From: an uncultured cyanobacterium
GTDB taxonomy: Bacteria; Cyanobacteriota; Cyanobacteriia; Pseudanabaenales; Pseudanabaenaceae
DNA length: 64,000 nucleotides
Assembly (NCBI GenBank): GCA_963703315.1
Contig: OY969811.1
Coordinates: 1,984,001-2,048,000 of the forward strand
Direction of reading: 5' to 3'
Both the position numbers and the translations under genes were made by a program. How positions within the stretch are numbered: position 1 is the stretch's first letter; each line of letters begins with the position of its first letter. Of this stretch, positions 231-42,124 are shown in pieces. The notes under the pieces are model-generated. The model saw nothing but the letters and a program-made list of their open reading frames with translations, had not been told where the DNA came from and did no database searches.

Positions 231-273
231 TCAATCAACTTATTCATGAAGTCATGCGATCGCCTGTCACAAT
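231..273 (+). promoter_or_regulatory. Island promoter motif, copy upstream of the 343/507 unit
   Basis: TCAATCAACTTATTCATGAAGTCATGCGATCGCCTGTCACAAT; near-identical to 4725..4767 and 7005..7047; ends in an extended -10-like TG-T-CACAAT. Confidence 0.7.
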
Positions 274-342
274 CAAAATTTTACATAGGAAAATCTATAA
301 TATTTAGAAAGTTAATTCAGACAATATTCTAGAGTTTGCTAT

Positions 343-510
343 ATGGAAAGTGAAACCAAATTAACACTAATTAAAATTATTCAAACGACAATTTGGATAT
401 TCTTTGATTTTGTGATTTTCTATATGCTTTATGCAGCGATCACAAGTAAATTTGATATCTGGCTCTGGAATTATTTCGGATTACTATATTTTAAAATCAC
501 AAAAACATGA
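343..510 (+). CDS. Small hydrophobic protein (55 aa), possibly a truncated membrane-protein gene
   Basis: Manual ORF MESETKLTLIKIIQTTIWIFFDFVIFYMLYAAITSKFDIWLWNYFGLLYFKITKT*; its stop overlaps the next start (ATGA); lies directly after the promoter motif. Confidence 0.45.
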   Translation: MESETKLTLIKIIQTTIWIFFDFVIFYMLYAAITSKFDIWLWNYFGLLYFKITKT

Positions 511-1148
511 ATAAAACAGTACATAAAGTTGGGTTTTGGTCAGGACTTACTGCATTTATTTCAACACTTGCATTTACTGTTGTTCAGATGCTACAGCTTT
601 TTGGTGTTCTCAATTATCCATTGGATGAAATTTTAATTTATGGATTCTCTCTTTGCATAGTAATACCTTTCTTGCTAGAAATGCTTGCCCTTCACTATGT
701 AGCTCCAACCGAAAAAAAGTTTTGGAGTCATGCAGCTCTTATTTTTACAGTCTTGTATGTGGCATTCGTTACGGCTAATTATGTCGTTCAACTAGCAACG
801 GTAATTCCGATGACACTGCAAGGAACTTCAGACGAGATTCTGATTCTAAAACAAACTCCGCACTCTCTCTTTTGGGACTTTGATGCGATCGGATATATAT
901 TTATGGGATTCGCAACCTTATTTGCTGTTCCTATATTTGAGAAGCAGGGATTTCAAAGGTGGGTTAGATACTCTTTCTTGGTTCATAGTCTGGTTACACC
1001 TTTGATTGTATTTGTCTACTTCTATCCAAACTTTTCGGAGAAGCTACTTCTTATTGGAATTCCTTGGGGAATTACAGCGCCTTTGTCAATGTTGCTACTT
1101 GCCGTAATGTTCAAGAAAGATTCTGAAGTAAGCACTCAAACAATATGA
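507..1148 (+). CDS. Multi-pass membrane protein, function unknown
   Basis: 213-aa ORF with ~6 hydrophobic segments; ATGA overlap with the next ORF. Confidence 0.75.
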   Translation: MNKTVHKVGFWSGLTAFISTLAFTVVQMLQLFGVLNYPLDEILIYGFSLCIVIPFLLEMLALHYVAPTEKKFWSHAALIFTVLYVAFVTANYVVQLATVIPMTLQGTSDEILILKQTPHSLFWDFDAIGYIFMGFATLFAVPIFEKQGFQRWVRYSFLVHSLVTPLIVFVYFYPNFSEKLLLIGIPWGITAPLSMLLLAVMFKKDSEVSTQTI

Positions 1149-2044
1149 AAACTTCAAATCTGGTTATCTGGCTGTCATCTCTAATTGTCGTATTAGCATT
1201 AATCGCCGCTAGTCTCGGCTTGTTCTGGCAAGATGGGGGCAATTCGTTCTCTTTTACCACGCTCCGAGGAGACACTGTATCGATCGCTGGAAGAGGCTTT
1301 TACAAATACGATACGACGCTAATGGCGATGGGTTTTAAAGCAGGTGATGCGGTAACGCTGATTTTGGGTATCCCCGCGCTGATCTTCTCTCTTTTACGCT
1401 ATCAGCGTGAATCTGTGCGAGGTGGTTTGTTGTTGGCGGGTACGCTAAATTATTTTCTTTACAACTATGGCTCAATGGCGTTTGGCGCAGCTTACAACCA
1501 TCTATTTCTCATCTATGTCGCACTGATGTCGGTCAGTTTGTTTGCGCTAATCCAGACGTTAATGTCCTTTGATTTGGCGATATTACCTGTCCACTTTTCT
1601 GCTCACCTGCCGCGCCGCAATATTGGAATTTACTTGATTCTGTCTGGAGTGGCGCTGCTGTTAATCTGGCTAATTTTAAGCATTATCCCCGCACTAATCG
1701 AGGGCAAAGCACCGATGGAAGTGTGGAGCTATACCACCGTAATTACCTATGCGATCGATATGGGTATTGTTGCACCTGCGCTAATTGTCACTGGGATAAT
1801 GTTACTACGCCGCAACCCTCTGGGATACTTGCTTACAGCCACGCTGCTAGTGTTTACAGTGATTCTCGGAACCAATCTGCTGACTGCTGGTACGTTCCAA
1901 GTGTTAGCAGGCTTAATCGACATTCGACAGTTTATCGGATTCGTGGCTTCCTTCGCGATCCTGACACTGTATGCAATCTGGTTTACATTGGCATTTTTCC
2001 GTAACCTTTCAGAGCGAATCTCTCCACAAACTGCTCATCTTTAA
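1145..2044 (+). CDS. Multi-pass membrane protein, function unknown
   Basis: 299-aa ORF with ~8 TM segments; translationally coupled to the previous ORF. Confidence 0.75.
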   Translation: MKTSNLVIWLSSLIVVLALIAASLGLFWQDGGNSFSFTTLRGDTVSIAGRGFYKYDTTLMAMGFKAGDAVTLILGIPALIFSLLRYQRESVRGGLLLAGTLNYFLYNYGSMAFGAAYNHLFLIYVALMSVSLFALIQTLMSFDLAILPVHFSAHLPRRNIGIYLILSGVALLLIWLILSIIPALIEGKAPMEVWSYTTVITYAIDMGIVAPALIVTGIMLLRRNPLGYLLTATLLVFTVILGTNLLTAGTFQVLAGLIDIRQFIGFVASFAILTLYAIWFTLAFFRNLSERISPQTAHL

Positions 2045-2076
2045 AGAACTTTAGAATCTAATTGAGGCAACACTCC

Positions 2077-2565
2077 ATGAAAAAAGTACCTTTCTTCAAG
2101 CACCGTTTATTTCTATTAGGAGTATCTTTATCGCTATATATGATGGGACTAATTCTCCCAGCACTTGCTTTTGAGATCGTCAATTTCAAGACAATACACT
2201 CAGGAATCATCATTGATATGAAGGGAATAGAAGTGACAGCTTGGGGAGTACTCGGATTATTATTTCTGCAAATACCCGCGATCGGCTGGTTAGCAAATCC
2301 ACTTTATTGGCTTTCCTGTGTATTTTTTGTAAAGAAGAAATATCAGTTCTCTATAGCTTTTACTATTACCGCAATTATTGTTGGATTTCTAGGAACAATA
2401 TCCGCATATTGGTTTGCTTTGCCAAATGGCAGTAGTCCTGATAGTCAAATTCTATTAACTAAATTATTACTTGGTTTTTGGTTGTGGCTTGCTGCTCCTA
2501 CATTTCTGATGATTGTTGATTTTGTCTATTTACAATATAGGAGCCAAACCAATGCCCATGAATAA
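2077..2565 (+). CDS. Hypothetical membrane protein
   Basis: ORF 2062..2565, ATG at 2077 preferred; 4 hydrophobic segments, WLANP motif. Confidence 0.65.
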   Translation: MKKVPFFKHRLFLLGVSLSLYMMGLILPALAFEIVNFKTIHSGIIIDMKGIEVTAWGVLGLLFLQIPAIGWLANPLYWLSCVFFVKKKYQFSIAFTITAIIVGFLGTISAYWFALPNGSSPDSQILLTKLLLGFWLWLAAPTFLMIVDFVYLQYRSQTNAHE

Positions 2566-3175
2566 AAAATGGAGAATCATAAAACTAAATTTATATAAAC
2601 TGCCAATTTTGTTGGTAGCAATTATTTTCTCTGTACTTAATTTTGAAGATAAGGCGATCGCGCAAGAGGCTGATGTGCCGAAACCTAATGGTAACGGAGA
2701 CTTTAGCAGCATATTTCTACAAGGAAACCGTGGCTTTTATGCTGTTCAAAAGTGGTTAATTATTCAGTCTGTAGAATCAGAAGCGAATGGAGGTACTGTA
2801 AATTGTCGATACACCCCGAATGGAGAGATAAGATCGCGCATTCAGAGAGGTGCTATTCTTACGGCTGTTTTTAACAAAACTGCGATGGGTCGAGTCCCCA
2901 ATCCCCATACCTCAGCTGATGATGCGATCGTTTTAGACAGTAGTGGCTCCCCTTGGTTGCGGGTAATCGGCACAAGAGAGGAGTTAGCTTATCCCGTCAG
3001 ACCTCTGACTTTTTATGACTTAGGAGAATGCTATGTGAGGGCTAATTTAAAATATATTGCTCCCATTAATCCTGATGCAATCAATTTTTACGATCAAAAA
3101 ACATCTTTTTCTTACTGTGCTGTTAAGCCTTTGTATTGCTTACCTATTATCGCTCAATGGCTATCACTAAGATAG
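2558..3175 (+). CDS. Hypothetical exported protein
   Basis: ORF 2513..3175; signal-peptide-like N-terminus ending AIA-Q; start uncertain. Confidence 0.6.
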   Translation: MNKKWRIIKLNLYKLPILLVAIIFSVLNFEDKAIAQEADVPKPNGNGDFSSIFLQGNRGFYAVQKWLIIQSVESEANGGTVNCRYTPNGEIRSRIQRGAILTAVFNKTAMGRVPNPHTSADDAIVLDSSGSPWLRVIGTREELAYPVRPLTFYDLGECYVRANLKYIAPINPDAINFYDQKTSFSYCAVKPLYCLPIIAQWLSLR

Positions 3176-3177
3176 TT

Positions 3178-3299
3178 ATACAGCGCTTTGCGCTTACTCA
3201 AAACCCAGAGAATTTTTTGAAAGGAGCGCGGAGCGCTCCTTTCAAAAAATTCTCTGTACTGAATAAAGACTCAATAGGCTGTATTCAGTACAGAGAATT
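3178..3299. mobile_element. TA-flanked MITE-like element (ATACAGC...GCTGTAT) with an internal 51-bp palindrome (loop CGGAG) and a second overlapping inverted repeat
   Basis: Palindrome 3206..3256 CAGAGAATTTTTTGAAAGGAGCG-CGGAG-CGCTCCTTTCAAAAAATTCTCTG; related sequences at ~6869, ~33800 and 41857. Confidence 0.65.
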
Positions 3300-3407
3300 A
3301 ACGGCACTGCTTTAGTCTGCCTAGATTTGGGAGTCTTGATAAGCAAGGGATATAGTATCTCATATTTAATATTTCACATTTAATGGATAAGAAAAAGGAT
3401 AAAAATA

Positions 3408-4226
3408 ATGGATGACAGCATATTCAAAAAACACTCACCTATCAAATTCTTTTTGTTGGTTTTGTTACTGTCAATTCCATTCTGGATATTGGCTACTATG
3501 ACTAGAGATTTAACTGAAGTACTTCCGATAAAGCTGCCAATAAGCGCATTAATGACTTTCTGTCCTTTATTAGCAGCAGCAATTCTTGTTTATAAAGAAC
3601 AGAAGATTCATGGTGTTAAAGAACTCTTAAAACTATCTTTTGACTTTCAAAAAATCAAAGACAAAAAATGGTACATACCTATTGTTCTTCTCATGCCCAC
3701 CATAGCAGCACTTTCTTATCTATACTTGAAGATGACAGGAACCATACTACCCGAACCTCCAATCCCTTTTATATCTGTTATCATTTTTTTCTTTGTGTAT
3801 TTTATAGGTGCGATCGGCGAAGAAGTGGGTTGGAGTGGTTATGTTACCGAGCCTTTGCAAAACCAGTATGGGGCTTTTAAAGCAAGTATCATCATCGGTT
3901 TTATTTGGGCAATATGGCATATTATTCCCTATAGCCAAGCCCATCAAACGCCAATATGGATATTTTGGCAATGTATCGGTATGGTCTTTTTGCGGACAAT
4001 TATGGTTTGGATTTTTAACAATACTCATAAAAGTGTTTTTGCAATAATTCTCTTTCATACCATGATTAATATAAGTCCGTATCTATTCCCAAGTAATGGT
4101 TCTCACTATGACCCATTTATTTTTGCCGTTTTATTAGCGATTACGGCGATCGCCATAACTTGGCTATGGGGAACGGAAACTCTGGGTAAATATCGTTTTT
4201 TAGTCCCAATCAGCATCGAAAGGTGA
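3408..4226 (+). CDS. CPBP family (CAAX/Abi) intramembrane glutamic metalloprotease
   Basis: GEEVGWSG, IWAIWH and ILFHTMIN motifs; multi-TM. Confidence 0.85.
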   Translation: MDDSIFKKHSPIKFFLLVLLLSIPFWILATMTRDLTEVLPIKLPISALMTFCPLLAAAILVYKEQKIHGVKELLKLSFDFQKIKDKKWYIPIVLLMPTIAALSYLYLKMTGTILPEPPIPFISVIIFFFVYFIGAIGEEVGWSGYVTEPLQNQYGAFKASIIIGFIWAIWHIIPYSQAHQTPIWIFWQCIGMVFLRTIMVWIFNNTHKSVFAIILFHTMINISPYLFPSNGSHYDPFIFAVLLAITAIAITWLWGTETLGKYRFLVPISIER

Positions 4227-4229
4227 GGT

Positions 4230-4610
4230 ATGACCAACTCTAAGCGTATAGGAGAACTGCTGGGACCAACCCTGATGGTAATGGTTGCTTCGGAGTTTCC
4301 GCTTATTCAACCGCATCTCTACGACGAACAGATACCACCAGTCGTCTACCTCTCTGGAGTTCTCATGTTCATTGCAGGTTTAGCAATTGTGCGATCGCAT
4401 AACCTATGGCAACGTGACTGGACTCTGTTGATTACACTCTGTGGCTGGTTCTTGCTAGCTCTCGGACTGTTCCGAATGTTCGCTGCTAGTTTCTACCGAC
4501 TTGCCTCTGGCAACACAAATTCACTCTTCTTGATGATTGTCGAAGGTATTCTATTTGCAATTGGTTCTTTGATAACGTGGAAGGCATATGCGCGTGACGC
4601 AAAATCATAA
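4230..4610 (+). CDS. Small 4-TM membrane protein
   Basis: 126-aa hydrophobic ORF; GAGG RBS. Confidence 0.7.
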   Translation: MTNSKRIGELLGPTLMVMVASEFPLIQPHLYDEQIPPVVYLSGVLMFIAGLAIVRSHNLWQRDWTLLITLCGWFLLALGLFRMFAASFYRLASGNTNSLFLMIVEGILFAIGSLITWKAYARDAKS

Positions 4611-4724
4611 GGAAGTATTGCAATCCTTTTTGATCGCCTATAGTTTAATAGAATAAATTAACAGAACAAATTGACGAGTTATTTAATTTCAGTGATATTT
4701 ATTCAGTTACATTTTGTCGCGTAA

Positions 4725-4767
4725 TCAATCAATTCATTCACGAAATCAAGCGATCGCCTGTCACAAT
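4725..4767 (+). promoter_or_regulatory. Island promoter motif copy
   Basis: TCAATCAATTCATTCACGAAATCAAGCGATCGCCTGTCACAAT. Confidence 0.7.
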
Positions 4768-4844
4768 CATACATGGAAGAACTACAAGCAAGTTAATCCA
4801 GTCGATATTCCTAAAATCTACAGTAACCAATATAGGTAAGCGTC

Positions 4845-5288
4845 ATGTGGATTGAATGGATTGCAATTATTAGCAGTTTAATCATAGTTAGCTTTGGAAT
4901 CGCTGTCATTTATGCTAGCGATCGCTGGCGGTCTGAGACTGATAAATTACGAGTCAAAATGACAAATGGACAACAACCGATTCAGCCTAAAAACTATGAT
5001 CCAAAAGAGATTGTAGACTTACCAGAGCCTGTACAAAGATATTTTAGGGCTGTACTTCAGGATGGACAGGCGCTCATCTCAAAAGTTGAACTCTCTCAGA
5101 CAGGACAGTTTCACATGAATGAAACAGAGCATAAATGGCATAAGTTTACCGCTACGCAACTTGTGATTACACAAAGGCTAGGCTTTGACTGGGATGCAAA
5201 AATCCAGATATTTCCCTTCATAAATGTATTTGTCCATGATACATATCTGCTTAGTTCCTCGACCCATCGCGACACCCAAAGAACATGA
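4845..5288 (+). pseudogene. C-terminally truncated paralog of the 7067..8005 (DUF6920/DUF6544-like) gene
   Basis: High similarity to 7067..8005 from DRWxSETDKLRVK to VFVHDTYLL, then abrupt divergence at ~5253 and a stop after 11 unrelated codons. Confidence 0.75.
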
Positions 5289-5328
5289 ATCGACTTGATC
5301 AATAGATTGAAAAAGTAAGGAGATCGAA

Positions 5329-6669
5329 ATGCAAAGATTGTTAACTAAAAGTCCAGTCGCAGTGGCTGCTTTCTGGATCACTGTTTATCTGGCGATCGCT
5401 CTGCTACCTCTTTTTGTCTTACTTCTATACCCTCCTGCTTCGGCTGGACGGGGTGGGTGGACGGAGTTTTCAGTTTCTCTCGGATTTGTGGGATTGGCAA
5501 TGTTAGCGCTTCAGTTTGCCATCACCGCCCGACTCCATCAAATTGAGGCATCCTACGGAGTTGATATCATCCTGCAATTCCATCGCTATATCTCTCTAGT
5601 GGCTTTCGCCCTGATCCTGATTCATCCCCTAATTCTCTTTATTAATCAACCCGAAACGTTAGAGTTACTGAATATATTCAAAGCTCCGTGGCGAGCCAAA
5701 TTCGCCGTGACTGGCACTCTGGCACTGATAGTACTGGTTATCACCTCAATTTGGCGGCAGCGCCTCAGCATTCCCTATGAGCTATGGCGTGAAAGTCACA
5801 GCATTCTAGCTGTGGTGGCAGTGACCTTGGGTTTAGCCCATGGACTGGGAGTCAGCTATTATCTGGGACTGTTCTGGAAACAGCTGTTGTGGAGTGTGAT
5901 CGCCCTAAGCGCTTTATGGTTGCTGATTTACGTCCGCATCGTCAAACCTTGGATAATGACCAAACACCCCTACTTCGTAGAAGAGGTCATTCCTCAAAGA
6001 GGAAATGTGTGGACTTTAGCTATTCGTCCGAGAGGACACAAGGGATTTCGATTTCAACCTGGACAATTTGCTTGGATCACCCTCGAAATTTCGCCCTTTC
6101 GGATGCGCGAACATCCCTTTTCCATGTCTTCGAGTGGCGACCACCCTGAACGATTGGAATTTAGCATCAAAGCTCTAGGAGACTTTACCCAAACTATTAA
6201 GGATATTAAGTCAGGGACTAAGGCTTATCTTGATGGTCCTTACGGCGTGTTTACGAGCGATCGCTACTGGGATGCTGCTGGATTTGTACTCATTGCAGGT
6301 GGGATAGGCATCACCCCAATGATGAGTATGCTGGTTACTGCCATTGAGCGGAGAGATGATCGACCGTACTTACTCATTTATGCCAACAAAAGCTGGGAAG
6401 ATATGACTTTCCGCGAGGAATTAGATGGTCTCATTGACTCGATAGATCTCATGATCATTTATGTGTTGCGTCAGCCTTCCGAAGACTGGACAGGTGAAAC
6501 TGGCTATGTCGATAAAGACCTGTTACAAAAATACATTCCCATCCATCGCGGTAGCCGACAATATTTTATCTGTGCCGCTCCAGTTATGATGGAGCAAGTT
6601 GAAGAAGCGCTTCTTGATTTAGAGGTGCCTGCAACCAATATCCAAATGGAACACTTCAATCTAGTTTAG
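5329..6669 (+). CDS. Ferric-reductase-like transmembrane domain plus FAD/NAD(P)-binding oxidoreductase
   Basis: Heme-type His motifs (FHRY..IHP, ESH..AHG), PGQF, EHPFS, DGPYG, AGGIGITP and C-terminal EHF; AGGAG RBS. Confidence 0.9.
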   Translation: MQRLLTKSPVAVAAFWITVYLAIALLPLFVLLLYPPASAGRGGWTEFSVSLGFVGLAMLALQFAITARLHQIEASYGVDIILQFHRYISLVAFALILIHPLILFINQPETLELLNIFKAPWRAKFAVTGTLALIVLVITSIWRQRLSIPYELWRESHSILAVVAVTLGLAHGLGVSYYLGLFWKQLLWSVIALSALWLLIYVRIVKPWIMTKHPYFVEEVIPQRGNVWTLAIRPRGHKGFRFQPGQFAWITLEISPFRMREHPFSMSSSGDHPERLEFSIKALGDFTQTIKDIKSGTKAYLDGPYGVFTSDRYWDAAGFVLIAGGIGITPMMSMLVTAIERRDDRPYLLIYANKSWEDMTFREELDGLIDSIDLMIIYVLRQPSEDWTGETGYVDKDLLQKYIPIHRGSRQYFICAAPVMMEQVEEALLDLEVPATNIQMEHFNLV

Positions 6670-6689
6670 TTCTTAACTATGGAAGACTT

Positions 6690-6830: not shown

Positions 6831-7004
6831 TTTCACCTATCAAATATATAACTGTCTACGAAGTTGAATACAGAGCTTTACGCTGACTTAAAATCCAGAA
6901 AGATTTTTGAGTGTCAATAATTGTTTGCTTTTGCGATCGCTTAGAACTCACGACTCATAGTAATAGCGATCGCCATAACTTAGCTATTACATTTTGTAGT
7001 GTAT

Positions 7005-7047
7005 TCAATCAACTCATGCACGAAGTCAAGCGATCGCCTGTCATAGT
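7005..7047 (+). promoter_or_regulatory. Island promoter motif copy
   Basis: TCAATCAACTCATGCACGAAGTCAAGCGATCGCCTGTCATAGT. Confidence 0.7.
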
Positions 7048-7066
7048 TAAAACTTTACATAAGAGA

Positions 7067-8005
7067 ATGATATTCATCCAAACATGGCGATTTATAGTAT
7101 TGATATTAGCTGTATTTGGCTTAGGTTTATCTATGAACTATTTGCTGAAGTTACCGCCAATTGCCATGATCAGCATTCTGATCGTAGCCATATTAGTAAT
7201 TATCGTCATTTATGCTCGCGATCGCTGGCAGTCTGAGACTGACAAATTACGAGTAAAATTGACAAACGGACAACAACCAATTCAACCTAAAACCTATGAT
7301 GCTCAAGAGATTGTAGATTTACCAGAGCCTGTACAGCGATATTTTAAGGCTGTGCTTCAGGATGGACAGGCGATCGCTACCGAGGTAGAACTCTCTCAGC
7401 ATGGACAGTTTCACATGAATGAAACCGAGACTAAATGGCATAAGTTTACTGCTACGCAACTTGTAGTTACCCAAAGGCTAGGTTTTGATTGGGATGCCAA
7501 AATTGAGATGATTCCCTTTGTAAATGTATTTGTCCATGATACCTATCTTCTAGGAGAAGGAACTCTACAAGCTTCCATACTTAGTCTTTTCACGGTTGCC
7601 AAAATGCACAATACGCCCGAATTAAATCAGGGTGAATTATTACGATTCCTTGCGGAAACGGTTTGGTATCCGACAGCATTGTTACCTAGTCAGGGTGTGG
7701 TCTGGGAAGCGATCGATCAGCATTCTAGCCGCGCCACTTTGACCGATGGCAAAACCACTGCCTCGGTTGTGTTTCAGTTTGATGCTGAAGGATTAATTAC
7801 CAGTATGCGTGCCGATGCTCGTTGTTATCGCGTAGTTGGTGATAAATCGATGTTTATGCCTTGGGTCGGTAATTTTCGAGAATATGCAATTTGTAATGGA
7901 ATGCGAATTCCCTTAGAAGGTGAAGTGGGTTGGGAACATCCAGAAGGGCTTCGACTTTATTTTAAAGGAAAGATTACAGAGATTAGTTATAAGTTCGCAT
8001 TGTAA
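7067..8005 (+). CDS. Membrane-anchored DUF6920/DUF6544-like protein with a chimeric DUF1772-like N-terminus
   Basis: LPEPVQRYF, GELLRFLAETVWYPTALLP and GMRIPLEGEVGW motifs; ATG 7067 is in frame with ORF 6911..8005 and lies downstream of the promoter motif. Confidence 0.75.
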   Translation: MIFIQTWRFIVLILAVFGLGLSMNYLLKLPPIAMISILIVAILVIIVIYARDRWQSETDKLRVKLTNGQQPIQPKTYDAQEIVDLPEPVQRYFKAVLQDGQAIATEVELSQHGQFHMNETETKWHKFTATQLVVTQRLGFDWDAKIEMIPFVNVFVHDTYLLGEGTLQASILSLFTVAKMHNTPELNQGELLRFLAETVWYPTALLPSQGVVWEAIDQHSSRATLTDGKTTASVVFQFDAEGLITSMRADARCYRVVGDKSMFMPWVGNFREYAICNGMRIPLEGEVGWEHPEGLRLYFKGKITEISYKFAL

Positions 8006-13323: not shown

Positions 13324-14094
13324 TCAAGACTTATTAACAACACCTTTGTTTTTCCAAAGTTCTTGCAAATTTTGCTTGATTTCCTGCTCTTTACGGGCAA
13401 CTACTGAGCCAAGTTCACCTAGATTGTGTTCAATTTCTACTTGCTTCTGCTGTAAAGGCAATATAGTTCCATTAGCTTCGGCTTCAGTTTTTTTCTGGTC
13501 GTACCAAGTTTTAGCTTTTTCCCATTGCTGCTTGACCTCGTTGTAGCGATCGCCATAACGAAGTGCCAACTTCTTGTCTAAGATGGCAAGCTGAGTCTTG
13601 AGCTTGAGATATTGCTCTTGCAAAATGCCAGATTCTTGACTCTCCTGCACATTACTGACTGCTAAATTCATTACTTTTAAATTGGGATCTATAGAATCAG
13701 TTGATTCCACTACTTGAAGGTCAATTAAGATCTCACTGATTTCCCGATCTAATTGTTCTTGCTGCTCATCTAACTGGGCTTGGATTTCTAGGAGTTTGGT
13801 GCGGCGTTGGGCGATCGCCTGTTGTCGCTGATTAGTACTTCCTGCGATCGCTCCTTCAATAGAAGCCGTAATTCTTTCGGTATTTTCTTTCCCACTTCCT
13901 TTCAAGTCCGCCATTACAATAGAAATTGCATCTTTGACAATTAGACGAATTTCACCTGTGCCTTCTTTTAATTCGGCAACTGTCTGCTCAACAGCATCTT
14001 TGACAATCTCGCGAATATGCTCAGCCCGAATCTTTCCTTCTGCTTTCGCTCTATCGAGATTAGTTGTGATTTTTTCTTTAACTGGATTAGGCAT
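13324..14094 (-). CDS. Coiled-coil hypothetical protein
   Basis: ORF 13324..14133, ATG 14094 preferred; helical and E/Q/K-rich. Confidence 0.75.
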   Translation of the reverse strand: MPNPVKEKITTNLDRAKAEGKIRAEHIREIVKDAVEQTVAELKEGTGEIRLIVKDAISIVMADLKGSGKENTERITASIEGAIAGSTNQRQQAIAQRRTKLLEIQAQLDEQQEQLDREISEILIDLQVVESTDSIDPNLKVMNLAVSNVQESQESGILQEQYLKLKTQLAILDKKLALRYGDRYNEVKQQWEKAKTWYDQKKTEAEANGTILPLQQKQVEIEHNLGELGSVVARKEQEIKQNLQELWKNKGVVNKS

Positions 14095-14141
14095 AGTTAA
14101 TGTTTCCAAATCTTCAGTATAGAATTTATGCATTTAATCGC

Positions 14142-14184
14142 ATTCTGACAGATAGATGTTTGAAATCATGTATATCGAGATATT
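14142..14184 (-). promoter_or_regulatory. Island promoter motif copy heading the 14094->10397 gene run
   Basis: Minus strand ...CATGATTTCAAACATCTATCTGTCAGAAT; a TCAATCAAT box lies further upstream (~14198-14206). Confidence 0.55.
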
Positions 14185-14413
14185 GAAGAATGTCTTTATT
14201 GATTGACTTGTATGGGAATGTCGTAAATCTTTATCATGTCGTCAGTCTTTCTAAAACACGGGGTTGCGGCGCGAAGCGTTGCAAACCGCTTCTTCGGTTT
14301 TATACAAATGCCAACATCTATAGAATTAGAAACATCAATGTTTAGCAAAGGATTACAATAAAAGCAATTGCTGCTAAGTACCTCAGCGATGGGGTTTTAT
14401 TTTGACAATCGAA

Positions 14414-17095: not shown

Positions 17096-17148
17096 ACGAT
17101 GACAGGCAAACATTTGATTTCTTGAATGAATTGTTTAAATTGATTGAA
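17096..17148 (-). promoter_or_regulatory. Island promoter motif copy upstream of csbD
   Basis: Minus strand TTCAATCAATTTAAACAATTCATTCAAGAAATCAAATGTTTGCCTGTCATCGT. Confidence 0.7.
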
Positions 17149-17666: not shown

Positions 17667-17723
17667 ACTGTGACAAGCGAATATTTCATTTCCTGATTGA
17701 ATTGATTGAATTGATTGAATGAA
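17667..17723 (-). promoter_or_regulatory. Island promoter motif copy with an expanded 9-bp TCAATCAAT array
   Basis: Minus strand TCATTCAATCAATTCAATCAATTCAATCAGGAAATGAAATATTCGCTTGTCACAGT. Confidence 0.7.
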
Positions 17724-17755
17724 ATACAAATCTTAATTAATGCCAAATCCAATTT

Positions 17756-19287: not shown

Positions 19288-19330
19288 ATATTTACAGATA
19301 GCTGTATGATTTTGTGTATAAGTTGATGGA
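19288..19330 (-). promoter_or_regulatory. Island promoter motif copy upstream of the yggT-like gene
   Basis: Minus strand TCCATCAACTTATACACAAAATCATACAGCTATCTGTAAATAT. Confidence 0.6.
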
Positions 19331-22402: not shown

Positions 22403-22445
22403 ACGATCGCAGAAGCATGATTGATCTAAGATGTGAATTGGTTAA
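22403..22445 (-). promoter_or_regulatory. Island promoter motif copy heading the 22369->19410 gene run
   Basis: Minus strand TTAACCAATTCACATCTTAGATCAATCATGCTTCTGCGATCGT. Confidence 0.55.
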
Positions 22446-22529
22446 ATACAGTACAAAACTTATCTATCCTTCTTCTTCATTAAGAGAGCTATCATTTAGG
22501 TAATGAATGACAAGTAATGGTAAAAAATA

Positions 22530-26096: not shown

Positions 26097-26139
26097 AATT
26101 TGACATGACAATGATTGACTTCATGAATGAATTGATTGA
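26097..26139 (-). promoter_or_regulatory. Island promoter motif copy heading the barrel-rubredoxin-dps-GST run
   Basis: Minus strand TCAATCAATTCATTCATGAAGTCAATCATTGTCATGTCAAATT. Confidence 0.7.
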
Positions 26140-29670: not shown

Positions 29671-29722
29671 ACCATTACAGAAGAGTGTTTAGTTTTTTGA
29701 GTGATTTGATTGAATTGATTTA
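29671..29722 (-). promoter_or_regulatory. Island promoter motif copy
   Basis: Minus strand TAAATCAATTCAATCAAATCACTCAAAAAACTAAACACTCTTCTGTAATGGT. Confidence 0.6.
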
Positions 29723-29819
29723 CTATGCAATAAAGTGTTACAAAACTTACTTCTATTCATACCCAAGAACAGATGAGGTGCTTTGCACCTCATCTGTTCT
29801 TGGGCTTCACTATCTATGA

Positions 29820-31164: not shown

Positions 31165-31207
31165 ACAATTGCAAATCAATGTTTGATTTTGAGAATGAGT
31201 TGATTGA
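31165..31207 (-). promoter_or_regulatory. Island promoter motif copy
   Basis: Minus strand TCAATCAACTCATTCTCAAAATCAAACATTGATTTGCAATTGT. Confidence 0.65.
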
Positions 31208-31291
31208 TTACGAAATAAACTGTAATAGCAACTTTGGAGTTTGTGAGGGCGCAGCTTCGCCGCGCCCTCACTCAAAGACCTAATGGCAAGT

Positions 31292-33592: not shown

Positions 33593-33683
33593 AATTTAAC
33601 ACTCAATTATTTTTGTGTAATTTATGTGGAATATCAATTAGCAATTTACTCACTGCAACTACCTTTACACTTGAATGTCATAA

Positions 33684-33726
33684 ATCATGTATAGGCAAAT
33701 ATAAAAAACTGAATGAATTGTGTGAA
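33684..33726 (-). promoter_or_regulatory. Island promoter motif copy (spacing off by 1) upstream of katB
   Basis: Minus strand TTCACACAATTCATTCAGTTTTTTATATTTGCCTATACATGAT. Confidence 0.45.
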
Positions 33727-34015: not shown

Positions 34016-34072
34016 AATTCAATCAAGTTATACACTGCTTAAACACGAGATCAAACAATTGACTGTTAGATT
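34016..34072 (+). promoter_or_regulatory. Island promoter motif copy upstream of the LEA-like gene
   Basis: AATTCAATCAAG...CACGAGATCAAACAATTGACTGTTAGATT. Confidence 0.55.
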
Positions 34073-35610: not shown

Positions 35611-35703
35611 GAACAAATTTTGAAAGCGCGGCGAAGCCGCGCTTTCAAAATTTGTATTAGAAACAAAGTGTAATAGAACTTATGTTCTATTACACTTTGT
35701 TTC
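35607..35703. repeat. Two tandem palindromes (CGAAG loop; TTAT loop) starting at the stop codon
   Basis: ACAAATTTTGAAAGCGCGG-CGAAG-CCGCGCTTTCAAAATTTGT; GAAACAAAGTGTAATAGAAC-TTAT-GTTCTATTACACTTTGTTTC. Confidence 0.8.
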
Positions 35704-35716
35704 GTAGTAAAGCAAG

Positions 35717-35759
35717 TTCATCATGTCACTCAGGTAGTTGGACACGCCAATGTCATGAT
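35717..35759 (+). promoter_or_regulatory. Island promoter motif copy upstream of the hemerythrin gene
   Basis: TTCATCATGTCACTCAGGTAGTTGGACACGCCAATGTCATGAT. Confidence 0.45.
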
Positions 35760-35776
35760 TTTTACTATAGAGAAGT

Positions 35777-35878
35777 AAGTAGCTAGGCATAAGTAAACTT
35801 AAAACCTAGAAGCTTGTGCCGCCCGTGTAGCGGGCGGCACAAGCTCTGGTTTTGGCTTTTAACTATGTTGATCTACTT
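35777..35878. mobile_element. AAGTAGCT-family MITE
   Basis: T|AAGTAGCTAGGCATAAGT...GCTTGTGCCGCCCG-TGTAG-CGGGCGGCACAAGC...ATCTACTT|A. Confidence 0.7.
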
Positions 35879-35916
35879 AATTATCTCTTAAAACTACACA
35901 TCAGGATCAATCACCA

Positions 35917-36954: not shown

Positions 36955-36968
36955 AGTGGCTTTTAAAA

Positions 36969-37162
36969 TCTAGAAGGATGATAAGCACTTTGCGCTTATC
37001 ATCCTTAGGACTTACGCAGAATTTTCTAAGACCCTCACCCCTAGCCCCTCTCTCAAAAAGGGAGAGGGGAACAAGAAAAATCTCTTACTCCCCTTCTCCC
37101 GTTCTGGGAGAAGGGGTTGGGGGATGAGGGCAATTTAGATTTTGCCCTTATCATCTTTCTAG
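36969..37162. mobile_element. Nested composite: a CTTTG-loop palindrome interrupted by a TAGGACTTACGCA end and a C/G-rich double hairpin
   Basis: TCTAGAAGGATGATAAG...CTTATCATCCTT|AGGACTTACGCA...GGGGATGAGGG...|CTTATCATCTTTCTAGA. Confidence 0.65.
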
Positions 37163-37204
37163 ATCCAAGAAAATCTCTTCTTACTATCATTAGGAGCGAA
37201 AATC

Positions 37205-37375
37205 ATGATTGATTCTGACCGACCTTGGGAGACTTCTATAGAACAGCAAGTTATTAATGTTGGAGAATTCAACGATCGCGTCCATTGGGGTGCTTTTTTA
37301 GGATTATCGGCTTCAACATTTTGTGTTAATAGAGGCATTAACAATATACATACGCGCCACGTAAATTTTATATAA
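37205..37375 (+). pseudogene. Short ORF (56 aa), possibly the 5' remnant of a membrane-protein gene
   Basis: Manual ORF MIDSDRPWETSIEQQVINVGEFNDRVHWGAFLGLS...*; AGGAG RBS; DRVxWG resembles the N-terminus of a cyanobacterial membrane family (recollection only). Confidence 0.3.
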
Positions 37376-37492
37376 CTTATGCAGTAGATCTGCCATCTCT
37401 TGCAAATATTTTACTCAGACTTAAACTGTTCAATGCCCCTCTCACTATACATTCTCGTAGAATGAACTCTAATCAAACATAAGTAGATAACC

Positions 37493-38377
37493 ATGTCTAA
37501 TTTAGAATACAATTCCGAGCGATTTTCGGTGTTGCCACTCGCTTATCAAAATGGCATCAGCCACATCTCTAAGACTGAAACAATGCCGACAATTCAAGCT
37601 TTTCGAGGTGAATCAAGAATTCTAGAAAACATCAAATTGCGTCAAGAAAAAGGATATACATCTATTCCTAAGTCTCAGAAAGAGCCTGAAGACGACTGTG
37701 CCACCTTTAAAGGTAATCCAGAGCGTCTAGTAGAATGCCATGAGAAGTTGGCACAACATTTACAAGAAGTTGCTCAGTTGGAACAAGAAATTACAAAACA
37801 TAAGAAGATTGAGCAAGAGCTTAGACAATCAGAGGCGGAATTAATCAAGGTAAATCAGGAACTTGAATATCTGGTCATGGTTGATGCCTTGACTCAAGTT
37901 GCTAACCGTCGTTGCTTTGATGATTCGCTCCATCGGGAATGGCAGCGATCGCTACGGGAGCAACAACCCTTATCTTTAATTCTTTTGGATATCGATTACT
38001 TTAAGGGCTATAACGACCTGTATGGACATCCCGCAGGCGATTGTTGCCTAACAAATTTAGCACAGGCTGTCAAACAATCTTTGCAACGCTCCACAGATTT
38101 AATTGCTCGCTATGGTGGGGAAGAATTTGCGATCATTTTGCCTAACACTACTACTCAAGGGGCAATTATTGTTACCGAATTAATTCAACAGACAATTTTT
38201 GATCTTTCGACTGTGCATGAGAATTCTGACGTGAGCAATATTGTGACAACTAGTTTAGGAATTGCCACAATTATTCCGATGGAAACACAAAAACCGAGCA
38301 TTTTAATTGATCAAGCCGATCAGGCTCTCTACAAAGCTAAGCAACAGGGACGTAATCGATATTCTGTCTATGTCTAA
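37493..38377 (+). CDS. Diguanylate cyclase (coiled-coil plus GGDEF)
   Basis: DALTQVANRR, DIDYFKGYND.YGH..GD, RSTD I-site, RYGGEEF and ADQALYKAK motifs. Confidence 0.9.
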   Translation: MSNLEYNSERFSVLPLAYQNGISHISKTETMPTIQAFRGESRILENIKLRQEKGYTSIPKSQKEPEDDCATFKGNPERLVECHEKLAQHLQEVAQLEQEITKHKKIEQELRQSEAELIKVNQELEYLVMVDALTQVANRRCFDDSLHREWQRSLREQQPLSLILLDIDYFKGYNDLYGHPAGDCCLTNLAQAVKQSLQRSTDLIARYGGEEFAIILPNTTTQGAIIVTELIQQTIFDLSTVHENSDVSNIVTTSLGIATIIPMETQKPSILIDQADQALYKAKQQGRNRYSVYV

Positions 38378-38389
38378 GTCATCAAAAAC

Positions 38390-38438
38390 TGGCTAATAAC
38401 GAAGTGCCGCGCGGAGCGCGGCACTTCGTTATTAGCCA
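38390..38438. terminator. Perfect palindrome with a CGGAG loop after the GGDEF gene
   Basis: TGGCTAATAACGAAGTGCCGCG-CGGAG-CGCGGCACTTCGTTATTAGCCA. Confidence 0.65.
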
Positions 38439-38559
38439 ATTGTGAATATATAGTTATGTTTAAGTAGTTAATCTTGATCTATGTGGTTATATCAAGAATA
38501 AGTAAGTTATACAAATATTTAATTAAGCTTGCTTAACTAAATATAAAACCCTAAAAATA

Positions 38560-38693
38560 TGTTTGAGAAGTTTTTTGCCTATTATAAATTTCATTTTTAC
38601 TCCCCTTAACCTCTCTTTGTAAACCTACGATATACACACAAGTTGTTAGCTATATCGGGAGGGGAGTTAAAAAGTGTAAAAACTTCTCAAACA
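38560..38693. mobile_element. MITE-like element with TGTTTGAGAAGTTTTT / AAAAACTTCTCAAACA termini (IS5/IS1031-like ends)
   Basis: 16-bp terminal inverted repeat plus inner complementary blocks (TTTTTACTCCCCT/AGGGGAGTTAAAAA, CGATATA/TATATCG). Confidence 0.55.
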
Positions 38694-38794
38694 CTATCAC
38701 TATCTCAAAGTGGTGGCGATTGTTGTGCGCCACCACTTTGAGATCTGGTTATTAACTTATGTCAAAACATCAACATCTATGAGCTAACCGACCT

Positions 38795-41110
38795 ATGGCA
38801 AAGCGATCTCTACAAGCATCACCATCTGGAGTCAAAAAGGCTAAACAGCAATTTACCTCTAAAGGCTGGACACAGGAGTATCTAGCCCATGAAGTCGGGA
38901 TCAAAACCCGACAACCAATTTGGCGATTTTTTGCAGGGCAAGCGATCGAACGATATACGTTTTTTGAGATCTGTACAAGATTGGATTTAGACTGGCGAGA
39001 AATTGCGCTCAATCCGCCTCTAGACTATATCGAGCCAATTACCGATGAATCAAATATCGAAACGCTAGCACTTGATGATTTAGTGGAAATGGTGCGATCG
39101 CGCCACCGCGAAAAACTTAATCATCAATGCGGTATCTTGCAGTTATTAGATATCAATCATCCTGTTGCCCTTGAACAAATCTACATTGATGTCAATATTC
39201 TTGAACAGATCGCTAGTCAGCAATGGCTAGATATTTCTGAGCTTGGGAGCATTACACCTGAAGACGTGGATCGCTTTGGTCTAGGCAGGATTGAAGAAAG
39301 CCAAATTCCGGGGATGCAAGCGGTCGAAAGATATCACAAACTCCGAGTATTGGGTAGACCCGGTTGTGGTAAATCCACATTTCTCAAATATCTAGCTAGT
39401 CAATGCAACCATGCTCACTTTGCAGCAAAGCAAGTACCCATCTTCATTAAGTTGCGTGATTTTGCCGCCAGTTTACAAGATCACAATCCCGCTAATTTAT
39501 TGGAATTTATTCATCAAGAATTTCTCTCTTCCGATATTTCCCAACTATCAATTATCAAAAGGCTGCTGCAAGAGGGAAGAATATTACTCCTACTTGATGG
39601 CATGGATGAAGTTTCCAACGAAGAAGAGATAATTGTTCTCAATGAGATTCGTCGCTTTTTTGATAAATATCATAAAAACCAGTTCATCGCCTCCTGCCGT
39701 GTCGCATCTCAGAAGCTAGCATTAACAGGATTCACTGATGTCGAAATTGCTCCTTTTACAGAAGAACAAGTCAAAATTTTTGTGCGTAAATGGTTTGTCG
39801 AATTGAGTGGGACTAATGCTACAGGCGCATTAGCAAGTGCATCTCAGTTTATGGATAAATTAGAACTGCCCGAAAACTGGCGATTTCGGCGACTGGTGAC
39901 CACACCTCTGTTTTTGCACCTTGCCTGTTCTATATTTCACCGCGAAAAGAAGTTTCCCAACAAACAGGCAGAATTTTATAAACAAGCGATGGATCTGCTT
40001 CTCGGTAAATGGGATGAATCAAGGGGCATTGAACGCGATCAAATATATCAAGGATTTTTATTGCCGCAAAAACTTAAGCTATTGAGTCAGATTGCCTCCG
40101 CAACCTTTGAACAAAATCAATACTTCTTTGCCCAAGGTGTGGTTGAGAGACATATCAGTGATTATATGGAAGATCTTCCAGAAGCAAGCCTTGATCCCGA
40201 AGAAATTAGTCATATCAGTGAGTCAATACTCAAGGCGATCGAGTCCCAACATGGAGTTTTAGCCGAACGCGCACGTGGTATCTTCTCTTTTTCCTATGTA
40301 GCCCTACAGGAATATTTCACCGCCCGAAAAATTGTCGCTAGTCATAACCTCCAAGCCTTGGGATCATCGCTCAGTGGACTGGTAGACCATATTACTGATC
40401 CTTACTGGCGAGAAATCTTTTTGCTAACCGCAAGTATGCTCCGTAGTGCCGATAGCCTGATGCAATTGATGAAACAGGAAATTGATGCTCTAGTTTCTCA
40501 AGACCCTTATTTGCAAGAGTTTTTAGATTGGGCAAGCAAAAAATCAGAGACCAATCCAGCCGCCAATAGACCTGCGACAGGACGCGCTTTTTATCTGGCG
40601 CTGACTCGCGCACCGCATCTTGTCCCCCATTTCGCTTTGGCTTGCACTCTAGATCAAGGAGCCTTTCTGGATGCTGCCCTCGATGACTTATTGCAGAAAT
40701 GTATGCTAAGGGAAAGCCACAACTTTGCCTATGTCCATTCCTGTGCGAAGGCTCTCAGCAATATTTTAGGGATTGTGGTGGATCTAGGCTTTCATAAGTC
40801 TTTGCAAAAACTCAGTGATCAGTTACCAAATGGCGATCACACAAAGGCAAGCTTTGAGAGATGGTGTCATAAAAACTATGCAGCTTGGGTGATTGAGTTA
40901 CAGAAAGAGATCTCTACCCATCGTGATGTTAGTAATCAATGGGAGTTTGATGCTAGTCAACAGAAAGTCTTAGACAAATATTATGTTGCTAACCAACTGC
41001 TACTTGACTGTCTCAATAGTAATTGTGAAGTCACGACTAGCATTAGAGAAGAGATAGAAGCAACTTTATTAATGCCCCAAAAACAACTCGAACAACGCGA
41101 ATGGGCATAA
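38795..41110 (+). CDS. NACHT-family STAND NTPase with an N-terminal HTH
   Basis: N-terminal GWTQEYLAHEVGI.TRQPIWRFF (XRE-like HTH); Walker A GRPGCGKST, VPIFIKLR, Walker B LLLLDGMDE, SCR, TPLFL and FS...QEYFTA; helical C-terminus. Confidence 0.9.
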   Translation: MAKRSLQASPSGVKKAKQQFTSKGWTQEYLAHEVGIKTRQPIWRFFAGQAIERYTFFEICTRLDLDWREIALNPPLDYIEPITDESNIETLALDDLVEMVRSRHREKLNHQCGILQLLDINHPVALEQIYIDVNILEQIASQQWLDISELGSITPEDVDRFGLGRIEESQIPGMQAVERYHKLRVLGRPGCGKSTFLKYLASQCNHAHFAAKQVPIFIKLRDFAASLQDHNPANLLEFIHQEFLSSDISQLSIIKRLLQEGRILLLLDGMDEVSNEEEIIVLNEIRRFFDKYHKNQFIASCRVASQKLALTGFTDVEIAPFTEEQVKIFVRKWFVELSGTNATGALASASQFMDKLELPENWRFRRLVTTPLFLHLACSIFHREKKFPNKQAEFYKQAMDLLLGKWDESRGIERDQIYQGFLLPQKLKLLSQIASATFEQNQYFFAQGVVERHISDYMEDLPEASLDPEEISHISESILKAIESQHGVLAERARGIFSFSYVALQEYFTARKIVASHNLQALGSSLSGLVDHITDPYWREIFLLTASMLRSADSLMQLMKQEIDALVSQDPYLQEFLDWASKKSETNPAANRPATGRAFYLALTRAPHLVPHFALACTLDQGAFLDAALDDLLQKCMLRESHNFAYVHSCAKALSNILGIVVDLGFHKSLQKLSDQLPNGDHTKASFERWCHKNYAAWVIELQKEISTHRDVSNQWEFDASQQKVLDKYYVANQLLLDCLNSNCEVTTSIREEIEATLLMPQKQLEQREWA

Positions 41111-41167
41111 TATAGCGTTTTTCAAACAAGTAAGGTAAATAGGTTTGTTTGAAAAACGCTATAACTA

Positions 41168-41319
41168 TTAGGACTTACGCAACCCAACCAAGAACTCAAG
41201 TTCTTGGCTCAAAGCTAAAGTCAGCTAAAGCAGACTAAAAAATTCTTTAAACGAACCCGTTTCAACGGGTTTAAGCTTTCAGCCCGTAATTTATTACAGG
41301 GCTATTGCGTAAGTCCTAA
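41168..41319. mobile_element. Complete MITE with TA|GGACTTACGCA ... TGCGTAAGTCC|TA termini
   Basis: 14-bp perfect terminal inverted repeat including the flanking TA; internal hairpins (CCAAGAAC/GTTCTTGG, AACCCGTT/AACGGGTT); preceded by the TATAGCG...CGCTATA element at 41111..41163. Confidence 0.8.
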
Positions 41320-41652
41320 CTAGTTATTATGCTCTGAGAAGAGGGTATCGGCACGGCTCTTATCGTTGATATAGTTTTCTGCTAGATAGCAGATGAGGCT
41401 ATACTGTACCTCTACAGCTAGAGATTCTAGATATTCTCTCAATCTTCCCATTTGCCACTGGTGAGATAGTGTACTGAAAGACTCTGATACTAGATTATGG
41501 TTTGCTTTTTTAAAATCTCTGTAGTGATTTTTATATTTCAGAGCTTGATTCACCTTGTCATGCCCAAACTCGCTGCACAAGATATCAATTACTAAGCAGT
41601 TATTTGGACTTGCTACTACACTTTCATTAGTCCCCATTTGGTCTCCTCGCAT
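41320..41652 (-). CDS. Hypothetical protein
   Basis: 110-aa ORF with no recognised motif. Confidence 0.45.
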   Translation of the reverse strand: MRGDQMGTNESVVASPNNCLVIDILCSEFGHDKVNQALKYKNHYRDFKKANHNLVSESFSTLSHQWQMGRLREYLESLAVEVQYSLICYLAENYINDKSRADTLFSEHNN

Positions 41653-41856
41653 TCTTTCATAACTTAGGTATTGGGTTAATCTAGGAATAAACGTAAATAC
41701 TAAAAGTTATACTTAGAGCTATTTCAACAAACACAATCGTGTTGGATTAACTTAGCTATATCTTAGCTATATCAATGATTACACAAGTATTATTATTTTT
41801 ATAGAAGCAGTTAATTACTAATTTGTCTGTGCTTTAGATTACACAAAGTTGTGATC

Positions 41857-41991
41857 CAGCGCAAAGCGCTGAATTACTCCCAGAGAAACTTTTGAAAGCG
41901 CGGCTTCGCCGCACTTTCAAAAGTAAAGAACCAATTTTTTGTGACGCGGCGAAGCCGCGCTTTCAAAAAATTGCTTCTTTATTAAGCTATA
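41857..41991. repeat. Cluster of three REP-like hairpins (CAAAG, CTTCG and CGAAG loops)
   Basis: CAGCG-CAAAG-CGCTG; TTTTGAAAGCGCGG-CTTCG-CCGCACTTTCAAAA; CGCGG-CGAAG-CCGCG. Confidence 0.75.
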
Positions 41992-42071
41992 ACAGAGCCG
42001 TGATTAATTTGGCTCTAGATTGTCTCTCTTCCTTTGGATGGGGATAATCCTTAATTAAGTTTTACAACAAA

Positions 42072-42124
42072 CTCAATCAAGTAAGTGATCCCACTTCTCA
42101 AGTCAATCATTGCCCTGAGAAAGT
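42072..42124 (+). promoter_or_regulatory. Island promoter motif copy upstream of 42355
   Basis: CTCAATCAAG...CTCAAGTCAATCATTGCCCTGAGAAAGT. Confidence 0.5.

Follow-up and report, generated by a model that had tools for sequence, protein, structure and literature searches.

The stretch analysed here, called the window throughout, comprises 64,000 nucleotides from an uncultured cyanobacterium of the Pseudanabaenaceae (contig OY969811.1, positions 1,984,001 to 2,048,000), and it carries an island of stress-type genes headed by copies of one intergenic motif with a 43-bp core. That this motif is a real promoter element seems to us close to certain, and its sequence makes it most likely an activator-dependent promoter with a weak -10 element, used by RNA polymerase holoenzyme with a group 1 or group 2 sigma factor. 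The island also encodes a protein with a helix-turn-helix (HTH) domain at its N terminus and a NACHT domain, a sister of the known activator XssQ, and we consider it probable, on comparative sequence evidence, that this protein reads the element as an activator. An earlier reading of the same DNA, made from the letters only (the sequence-only reading), had described the motif and had overlooked the HTH-NACHT gene, an 18-bp upstream extension of the motif and the likeness to XssQ promoters.

The promoter element and its copies

All fifteen positions given by the sequence-only reading hold the sequence it described, and every copy is intergenic and sense-oriented. Ten copies align without gaps over one rigid 43-bp matrix and score 21-49 bits when each is left out in turn; of the remaining five, four score 10-14 bits and the katB copy -28 bits in the same leave-one-out scoring, and a separate rigid-matrix scoring with a broad matrix gave these five weak copies -52 to +6 bits. 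Over the 4.57-Mb genome the ten-copy matrix yielded 13 matches above 25 bits, and the same 13 sites scored more than 20 bits with a matrix whose 57 training sites all come from other genera. When simulated intergenic DNA was scanned with the ten-copy matrix, a single match exceeded 20 bits in 6.0 million positions. Ten of the 13 genome matches lie in the window, and its 44-64 kb part, already described as free of copies, holds no match above 9 bits with the ten-copy matrix. The three outside comprise an intergenic copy 6.6 kb left of the window (G000:1977383, minus strand), an intergenic copy that precedes a second CsbD-domain gene or operon (G000:4302999, minus strand), and a match of 27 bits within a 270-aa open reading frame (ORF) with no sense gene behind it (G000:1807007, minus strand; position 5007 of locus L004).

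The element contains an array of 9-bp direct boxes with the consensus AAnTCAnWC, which start at -52, -43 and -31 and keep a fixed distance to a hexamer with A at -11 and T at -7. A weaker element of 18 bp adjoins the core upstream, at -67 to -50, with matches at offset 0 in 54 of 145 distinct sites and at offset -9 in 12, the latter being the sites with an extra 9-bp unit; at any other offset it occurs in at most two of the 145, and the 18-mer matrix alone showed no genome-wide enrichment over the control. The gap between TCAA and TG is nine bases, not the eight of the original consensus, and a pattern with the N8 spacer finds no site in its own genome. The claim of one fixed 43-bp architecture holds for the ten copies of the rigid matrix, but in three others the upstream block is displaced outwards by 11 or 22 bp, and those at 35717 and 42082 have an extra 9-bp unit.

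The five weak copies were kept, despite failing the rigid matrix, because of footprinting on orthologous promoters and of block displacement. Orthologous promoters of the copies at 35717 and 42082 grade into full-score copies: the hemerythrin site exceeds 18 bits in 6 of 32 orthologous upstream regions, in the same register, and the YflT site exceeds 10 bits in 12 of 22. When the distal and proximal blocks were scored with a split matrix, their displacement was 0 in 132 pairs, 9 in 34 and 11 in 9, with single cases at 19-23, and the reversed controls gave no pairs. The upstream block lies 11 bp further out at 34030, as in nine other distinct promoters, and 22 bp further out at 14142 and katB. 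The katB copy had been assigned the hexamer CATGAT without TG; CATGAT belongs to the proximal box, and the hexamer in register is AAAGGT (33666-33661) with TG before it, a register kept in 7 of 8 katB promoters. The broad matrix, from which weak or coding matches (L040, L057, L058, L061) and one shifted duplicate in L146 were dropped, included sites that it later scored (weak copies, orthologous promoters, block displacement); the held-out tests are those with orthologue and paralogue loci, the matrix of positions 1-28, the matrix from other genera, the de novo sampling and the xss ranking.

A matrix of positions 1-28 only, applied to 60 loci fetched by gene, gave 25 matches, 24 of which have both A39 and T43 (-11A and -7T), so that the constancy of A at position 2 and T at position 6 of the hexamer, as originally described, also stands in held-out sites. 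Among 132 sites in fetched loci, an ORF starts within 150 bp in the sense direction in 95 and in the opposite direction in 10, and eight sites lie within open frames of at least 150 codons. A pyrimidine-purine step is commonest at 7 nt past the hexamer, in 65 of 145 sites (9-46 at other offsets), and neither a consensus RNA fold nor an Rfam match was found for the motif sites. The start sites predicted in this way for the window copies, to within 1 nt, are 280, 4774, 7054, 34079, 35766 and 42131 on the plus strand and 14135, 17089, 17660, 19281, 22396, 26090, 29664, 31158 and 33654 on the minus strand. Position -12 is mostly C and there is no -35 consensus; a weak -10 without a -35 fits activation. 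The extended -10 element proposed earlier survives in part: -11A and -7T are fixed, but TG at -15/-14 is not general, being found in 58 of 68 sites at genus loci versus 36 of 77 others (mostly genus-specific and optional elsewhere), and G at -14 occurs in 28% of the 25 held-out matches. As readers of the upstream repeats, an activator and an alternative sigma factor had been suggested; an activator site upstream is supported, and 28 conserved bases upstream of the hexamer, with variable box number and spacing, argue against the latter.

The copies in the window are as follows (coordinates, strand, description).

204..273, plus: promoter copy with core 231-273, extra 9-bp unit and upstream 18-mer; before ORFs 343-510, 507-1148 and following
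4707..4767, plus: promoter copy with core 4725-4767; before a DUF6920 fragment and a ferric-reductase-like gene
6987..7047, plus: promoter copy with core 7005-7047; before a DUF6920 gene (likely start 7067) and amylo-alpha-1,6-glucosidase
14142..14206, minus: long variant, upstream block 22 bp further out; before 13324-14133, Pmp3, a phage-holin-4-2-family gene and further genes; one similar 22-bp variant occurs in L211
17096..17165, minus: promoter copy with core 17096-17138, extra unit and near-perfect 18-mer; before csbD, pterin-4a dehydratase and DUF5670
17667..17736, minus: promoter copy with core 17667-17709 and extra unit; before an 86-aa ORF
19288..19330, minus: promoter copy; before a YGGT gene and a fatty-acid hydroxylase
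22403..22463, minus: promoter copy with core 22403-22445; before a DUF6335 gene
26097..26139, minus: promoter copy; before a 244-aa secreted protein, rubredoxin, a Dps/ferritin-like protein and GST
29671..29740, minus: promoter copy with core 29671-29713 and extra unit; before a small ORF, a PRC-barrel protein and a HAD-ATPase
31165..31225, minus: promoter copy with core 31165-31207; before an LEA-like secreted protein and DUF1269
33661..33725, minus: long variant (22 bp), hexamer AAAGGT at 33666-33661; before Mn-catalase katB, YflT, BON and HLIP
34019..34072, plus: 11-bp displaced variant in which the box at 34025 (-54) matches the XssQ consensus exactly; before genes of the LEA-like and transglycosylase-associated kinds
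35690..35759, plus: degenerate copy with 18-mer, extra unit and core 35717-35759; before a hemerythrin-domain gene
42073..42124, plus: degenerate copy with extra unit and core 42082-42124; lies 960 bp behind the HTH-NACHT gene and precedes a pair of YflT-like genes

By Pfam, the families encoded downstream include CsbD, Dps/ferritin, Mn-catalase, YflT, BON, PRC-barrel, Pmp3, HLIP and hemerythrin, together with transglycosylase-associated, GST, glucosidase and DUF genes, and the stress-type character first ascribed to the targets agrees with them. The DUF6920 gene occurs twice (4845-5288, truncated, and 6911-8005), and the second probably starts at 7067 and not at the upstream GTG. At 231-273, 4725-4767 and 7005-7047 an HIP1 octamer lies between the -31 box and the -10; an octamer occupies this spacer in 18 of 68 sites at genus loci versus 3 of 77 others, and methylation could affect those promoters.

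A scan of related genomes had been proposed in the sequence-only reading. With the spacer corrected, 42 of the 48 genomes sampled in the genus contain the strict pattern, as do 72 of 401 genomes of the class (34 of 167 genera), and its reversed control gave no match in these genomes. Outside the family the motif heads other genes, namely a second apcA, single-domain receivers and csbD, and the neighbours in those lineages include fasciclin, desaturase, ftsH, nblA, OCP and HLIP genes.

The island HTH-NACHT protein as candidate activator

The candidate is the following gene product.

38795..41110, plus: candidate cognate activator of 771 aa, with an XRE-type HTH (aa 1-75), a NACHT NTPase domain and an NCH2 helical domain

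Pfam detects NACHT and NCH2 in the protein, and its DNA-binding domain is the only one found by Pfam among the 70 proteins of the window. The N-terminal domain profile matches HipB (E 0.003), with HTH_31 in 15 and HTH_3 in 11 of 28 members. Atlas matches to the HTH stayed below a score of 0.9 and are no more than a lead. Walker A, the NACHT Walker B (D-G-h-D-E) and the sensor Arg are all intact, and the structure model (pLDDT 82) has NLRC4 as its closest fold. The predicted recognition helix, K-T-R-Q-P-I-W-R, is nearly invariant in orthologues and altered in paralogues. Close named relatives are labelled Pseudanabaena, and orthologues with 55-64% identity occur in Nostoc, Calothrix, Fischerella, Chroococcidiopsis and others, ten of them on plasmid records. 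A second HTH-NACHT protein (~710 aa; 55-62% identical over aa 1-590, with a different C terminus) is encoded in tandem with the orthologue at L088, L089, L166, L172 and L097, and in the source genome a distant NACHT paralogue lies divergent from a conserved NarL-type response regulator (G000:C1:806604-809853).

The gene and the motif occur together. Outside the genus, an orthologue is present in 38 of 44 motif-positive versus 33 of 323 motif-negative genomes, a count that leaves out five genomes with only 41-42% paralogues; the odds ratio is 56, compared with 5.7-10.7 for a cargo hydroxylase gene and 2.0 for a core NarL-type regulator, figures that ignore kinship and are overstated because kin genomes are not independent. 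Within the genus, genomes with the orthologue (n = 34) have a median of 6.5 strict matches and those without it (n = 14) a median of 1. Where coordinates are listed, 13 of 33 genomes have a motif no more than 1.5 kb from the gene and 16 have one within 10 kb, often 25-250 bp behind the stop codon of the regulator, and pieces of the orthologue were present in 10 of 30 three-kb loci picked outside the genus by the motif alone. In the converse direction, a matrix built from the window only found matches in 14 of 30 orthologue loci from genomes negative for the strict pattern and in 12 of 20 further orthologue loci, with none in 10 paralogue loci or 60 reversed controls. Unsupervised de novo sampling with genes masked, over 29 of those 30 loci, arrived at the motif in seven of its eight best runs, and around the 10 paralogue loci it gave no recurring motif. 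Upstream of homologues of the regulator itself no motif was found in 105 regions, which argues that the regulator gene is not simply a target.

Outside the genus, the gene met most often next to the regulator encodes a single-domain receiver (~20 of 50 loci), and the motif often heads it (for example L039, L042, L045, L048, L051-L053, L148); the gene is absent from the source genome, and its product is a possible feedback partner of the regulator. At L048-L055, L059, L060 and L107 an orphan second apcA, headed by the motif, lies directly behind the regulator, and some of those loci have a short, motif-headed Cys-rich zinc-ribbon ORF that begins like apcA.

The likeness to XssQ, to which a table in PMC12267927 pointed, joins the protein to a characterised activator. 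XssQ (Slr5058) of Synechocystis PCC 6803 is an HTH-STAND activator of the synechan cluster that binds single or tandem AAGTTnnAC boxes, with target activation shown genetically and box binding by electrophoretic mobility shift assay (PMC8205485). The island protein is 35% identical to it over 793 columns, the full length; in a tree rooted on one paralogue, with FastTree support only, the 69 orthologues form the sister clade (support 0.98) and XssQ groups with 40%-identity paralogues. Along 122 motif sites, likeness to AAGTTnnAC peaks at -31, -43 and -52 (on average 4.5, 4.1 and 3.4 of 7) and weakly at -63/-65, and exact AAGTTnnAC sequences lie at 34025 (-54 of the 11-bp variant) and 42057. When 84,630 positions of the xss region were scored with a proximal matrix trained without any xss sequence, the xssE promoter came out on top and the xssL promoter next. 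Seven nucleotides past the end of their hexamers lie 44333 and 52510, the starts of the xssE and xssL transcription units in the differential RNA-seq table of PMC4195498, a table opened after the ranking had been made, so that the start sites predicted just behind the hexamer are found there at mapped starts of XssQ promoters. Four of five XssQ promoters have -11A and -7T without -12T, a remnant of the -31 box is present in xssN and xssP, and each of the five has an AAGTTnnAC box, at either -54/-55 or -65/-66 (the names used for the genes of L247 follow from locus tags, transcription-unit coordinates and gene order).

Orphan copies and other explanations

Several observations weigh against the assignment of the element to this protein, beyond the overstated odds ratios. 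A purine stands at the predicted +1 in just 9 of the 15 window copies. Within the genus the cargo gene follows the motif no less closely than the regulator (25 versus 24 of 33), and 16 of the 30 and 8 of the 20 orthologue loci have no match above 20 bits within ~7 kb. The xssA promoter, off by one and without a -31 box, misfits the -31 geometry, and the full matrix scores the xss promoters below zero because their distal boxes differ. Copies that look genuine also occur where no orthologue was found: eight in G051, four in G058, and single strict matches in G003, G006 (closed), G041 and G059; G094, G266, G269 and G363 each have one intergenic copy, scoring 19-33 bits and in three cases accompanied by the upstream element, and neither an orthologue nor a close HTH was found in them. 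Such orphan copies may have been left stranded, may reflect gaps in the assemblies or may be read by paralogues. G051 contains part of the island with four copies and no regulator, between two identical integrase-core transposase genes (C90:16655-35951; L175, L176). Finally, an HTH 65% identical to that of the island protein, with the same recognition helix, is fused to the C-terminal half of acetate kinase at G000:2853963-2852980 (minus strand), and this fusion is found in many genomes of the genus (L180-L186, L189).

The orphan copies, several of them in genomes with other HTH-NACHT paralogues, and the identical recognition helix of the fusion protein are what one would expect if a wider set of XssQ-family HTH proteins (paralogues and the acetate-kinase fusion) read the boxes, or if a second core regulator of the RpaB or NarL/OrrA type were needed at the 18-mer, with the island protein as one input or a repressor and not the sole activator. 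We regard this as unlikely, though as the most serious of the alternatives. The motif is absent beside the fusion gene in four genomes checked (G003, G041, G006, G012) and present in three, and none lies near the 10 paralogue loci. The 18-mer is quasi-palindromic and averages ~10 of 16 matches to the RpaB site HLR1, in the region where RpaB activates, and OrrA-dependent induction of dps, katB and avaK in Anabaena (PMC9804601) would also suit a core regulator; however, HLR1 consists of two KTTACAWW halves, and its core TTAC is found in the left half of 39 and the right half of 1 of the 145 sites, none of which reaches 15 of 16, neither symmetry of the 18-mer shows covariation, and the lack of enrichment of the 18-mer alone and the fit of the weak -10 to activation stand against it as well.

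A core-genome activator or group 2 sigma factor (OrrA, Rre1 or SigB2) as the reader, with the HTH-NACHT gene as co-inherited cargo or a defence gene, is decidedly improbable. The target families do overlap the OrrA regulon and the genes co-induced with sigB2 in Nostoc (PMC7660261), bacterial NACHT proteins have mostly been described as defence sensors (bioRxiv 2022.07.19.500537), and the orphan copies favour this reading too. Yet the motif is nearly confined to the island in the source genome, and a conserved NarL-type regulator, which we do not equate with OrrA, is present in 33 of 33 genomes of the genus including motif-free ones; the closed genomes G002 and G045 lack the motif and have this regulator. 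The published motifs of Rre1 (GTNCGGK) and NfSrr1 (ATMAGTAARCYYAAT), compared by eye, do not match the column profiles (PMC11962455, PMC13421787), nor does HLR1, and boxes and geometry resemble XssQ sites; OrrA or Rre1, proposed by the sequence-only reading as possible binders, thus find little favour. In the literature passages on OrrA (PMC13131328, PMC9804601) no OrrA-bound motif is given. A test for the defence systems bNACHT and Avs gave only partial or weak PADLOC matches, and the neighbours of the gene are stress and photoprotection genes. Readings of the motif as a MerR-type dyad or as an FNR/CRP, LexA, NtcA or ECF site were dropped by eye against consensus sequences.

A reading of the copies as dispersed repeats, as sites for recombination or as RNA elements instead of promoters can hardly be true: those at 231, 4725 and 7005 share spacer sequence and precede duplicated genes, and the islands are mobile (plasmid records, a fragment bracketed by insertion sequences), but conservation is position-specific with free spacers, -11A/-7T is fixed, sense ORF starts prevail behind the sites, and no RNA fold or Rfam match was found.

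Around the island, neither a tRNA nor a GC step was found at its ends. Just outside it, at 46403-50967 of the window, a hybrid GAF histidine kinase gene faces one for an RsbW-like ATPase, with no motif; to the left of the island lies ~5 kb of repetitive sequence whose minus strand has no called gene (L002 14400-19000), and a ribonuclease and barstar-like gene pair is found 16 kb left of the window (L001 3633-4329).

Proposed mechanism and comparison with known systems

From the sequence, geometry, distribution and homology described above we infer binding, activation and oligomerisation as follows. The HTH-NACHT protein, a member of the STAND class, would bind the array of 9-bp boxes, and, like XssQ, MalT and AfsR, it may be switched by nucleotide exchange and oligomerisation. 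The oligomer would load several HTH domains on the array, the -31 box would contact or recruit RNA polymerase, and shifts of the upstream block by 11 and 22 bp would keep the boxes on one helical face. The outcome would be activation of ~15 transcription units of the island (CsbD, Dps, Mn-catalase, LEA-like, YflT, PRC-barrel, Pmp3, HLIP, hemerythrin, glucosidase) and of two outlying ones. The island most likely represents a portable general-stress regulon with its own switch, the stress types being predicted from the target families.

More broadly, we lean, without great confidence, towards the proposal that a portable general-stress regulon, carried on islands, plasmids and transposons, has as its dedicated switch this XssQ-sister, NLR-like sensor-activator, which is found in about a quarter of the cyanobacterial genomes sampled. 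The targets of the regulon would differ by lineage (CsbD, Dps, KatB and LEA here, and in other lineages a second apcA, nblA, OCP, ftsH and single-domain receivers), the switch would act beside or below OrrA and SigB, and the threshold at which the oligomeric activator responds would be set by the number of boxes and their 11/22-bp spacing. If this is true, the HTH-NACHT family gains a second regulon, XssQ being the sole characterised cyanobacterial member we found, and part of the large cyanobacterial NACHT expansion would be transcriptional rather than anti-phage; the matrix would be usable for regulon prediction and the element would be a compact inducible promoter. The genes that cyanobacteria induce under stresses such as salt and dehydration (csbD, dps, katB, avaK-like, hli) are well catalogued, but the literature examined gives no promoter element directly for them; the present analysis puts one forward together with its geometry, a candidate protein and the genes concerned. 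Our literature search, which included PMC9586280 and did not extend to most subscription papers, to figures or to several supplements, returned no description of the motif or of the clade as a stress regulator. Motif strings had no match in cyanobacterial full texts, and no copies were found in the supplements of two transcription-start-site papers (PMC3610870, PMC5580265), the Fischerella table being a subset.

The target families overlap those of the OrrA regulon of Anabaena PCC 7120 (dps, katB, PRC-barrel avaK, hli, csbD), in which induction of dps, katB and avaK depends on OrrA and homologous families respond to salt and drying (PMC9804601); in Nostoc, homologous families respond to alkane stress, with genes co-induced with sigB2 (PMC7660261). 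OrrA, however, is a core two-component regulator, whereas the island is mobile DNA with a local regulator. The SigB general-stress regulon of Bacillus also has overlapping target families but uses an alternative sigma factor, and for neither regulon was a matching motif found. The HLR1, Rre1 and NfSrr1 motifs likewise belong to stress promoters of cyanobacteria, and with HLR1 the element shares the position of its upstream 18-mer, since RpaB activates from -66 to -45.

MalT of E. coli and AfsR of Streptomyces are, like the proposed activator, nucleotide-switched STAND proteins that act on direct repeats, in which inducer-triggered ADP/ATP exchange and oligomerisation enable activation (PMC10427625, PMC10936776), and AfsR binds at -40 to -19 of a promoter with the suboptimal -10 CACTGT (PMC10936776). 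They differ in belonging to other STAND clades, with LuxR- or SARP-type DNA-binding domains and sugar or antibiotic regulons.

The closest comparison is with XssQ, whose units peak at 15 C or under iron limitation (PMC4195498). Unlike XssQ, the island clade has a different recognition helix, AAnTCAnWC boxes in arrays of three to five and general-stress genes as targets instead of genes for sulfated exopolysaccharide (EPS), and no XssR/XssS pair, EPS cluster or sulfotransferase/glycosyltransferase target was seen among the window neighbours or the families at 50 loci. The two share an N-terminal HTH with a NACHT/STAND module, single or tandem 9-bp direct boxes, a regulator encoded among its targets and plasmid-borne cases, and four of the five XssQ promoters combine a box at -31 to -23 with a hexamer that has -11A and -7T and no -12T.

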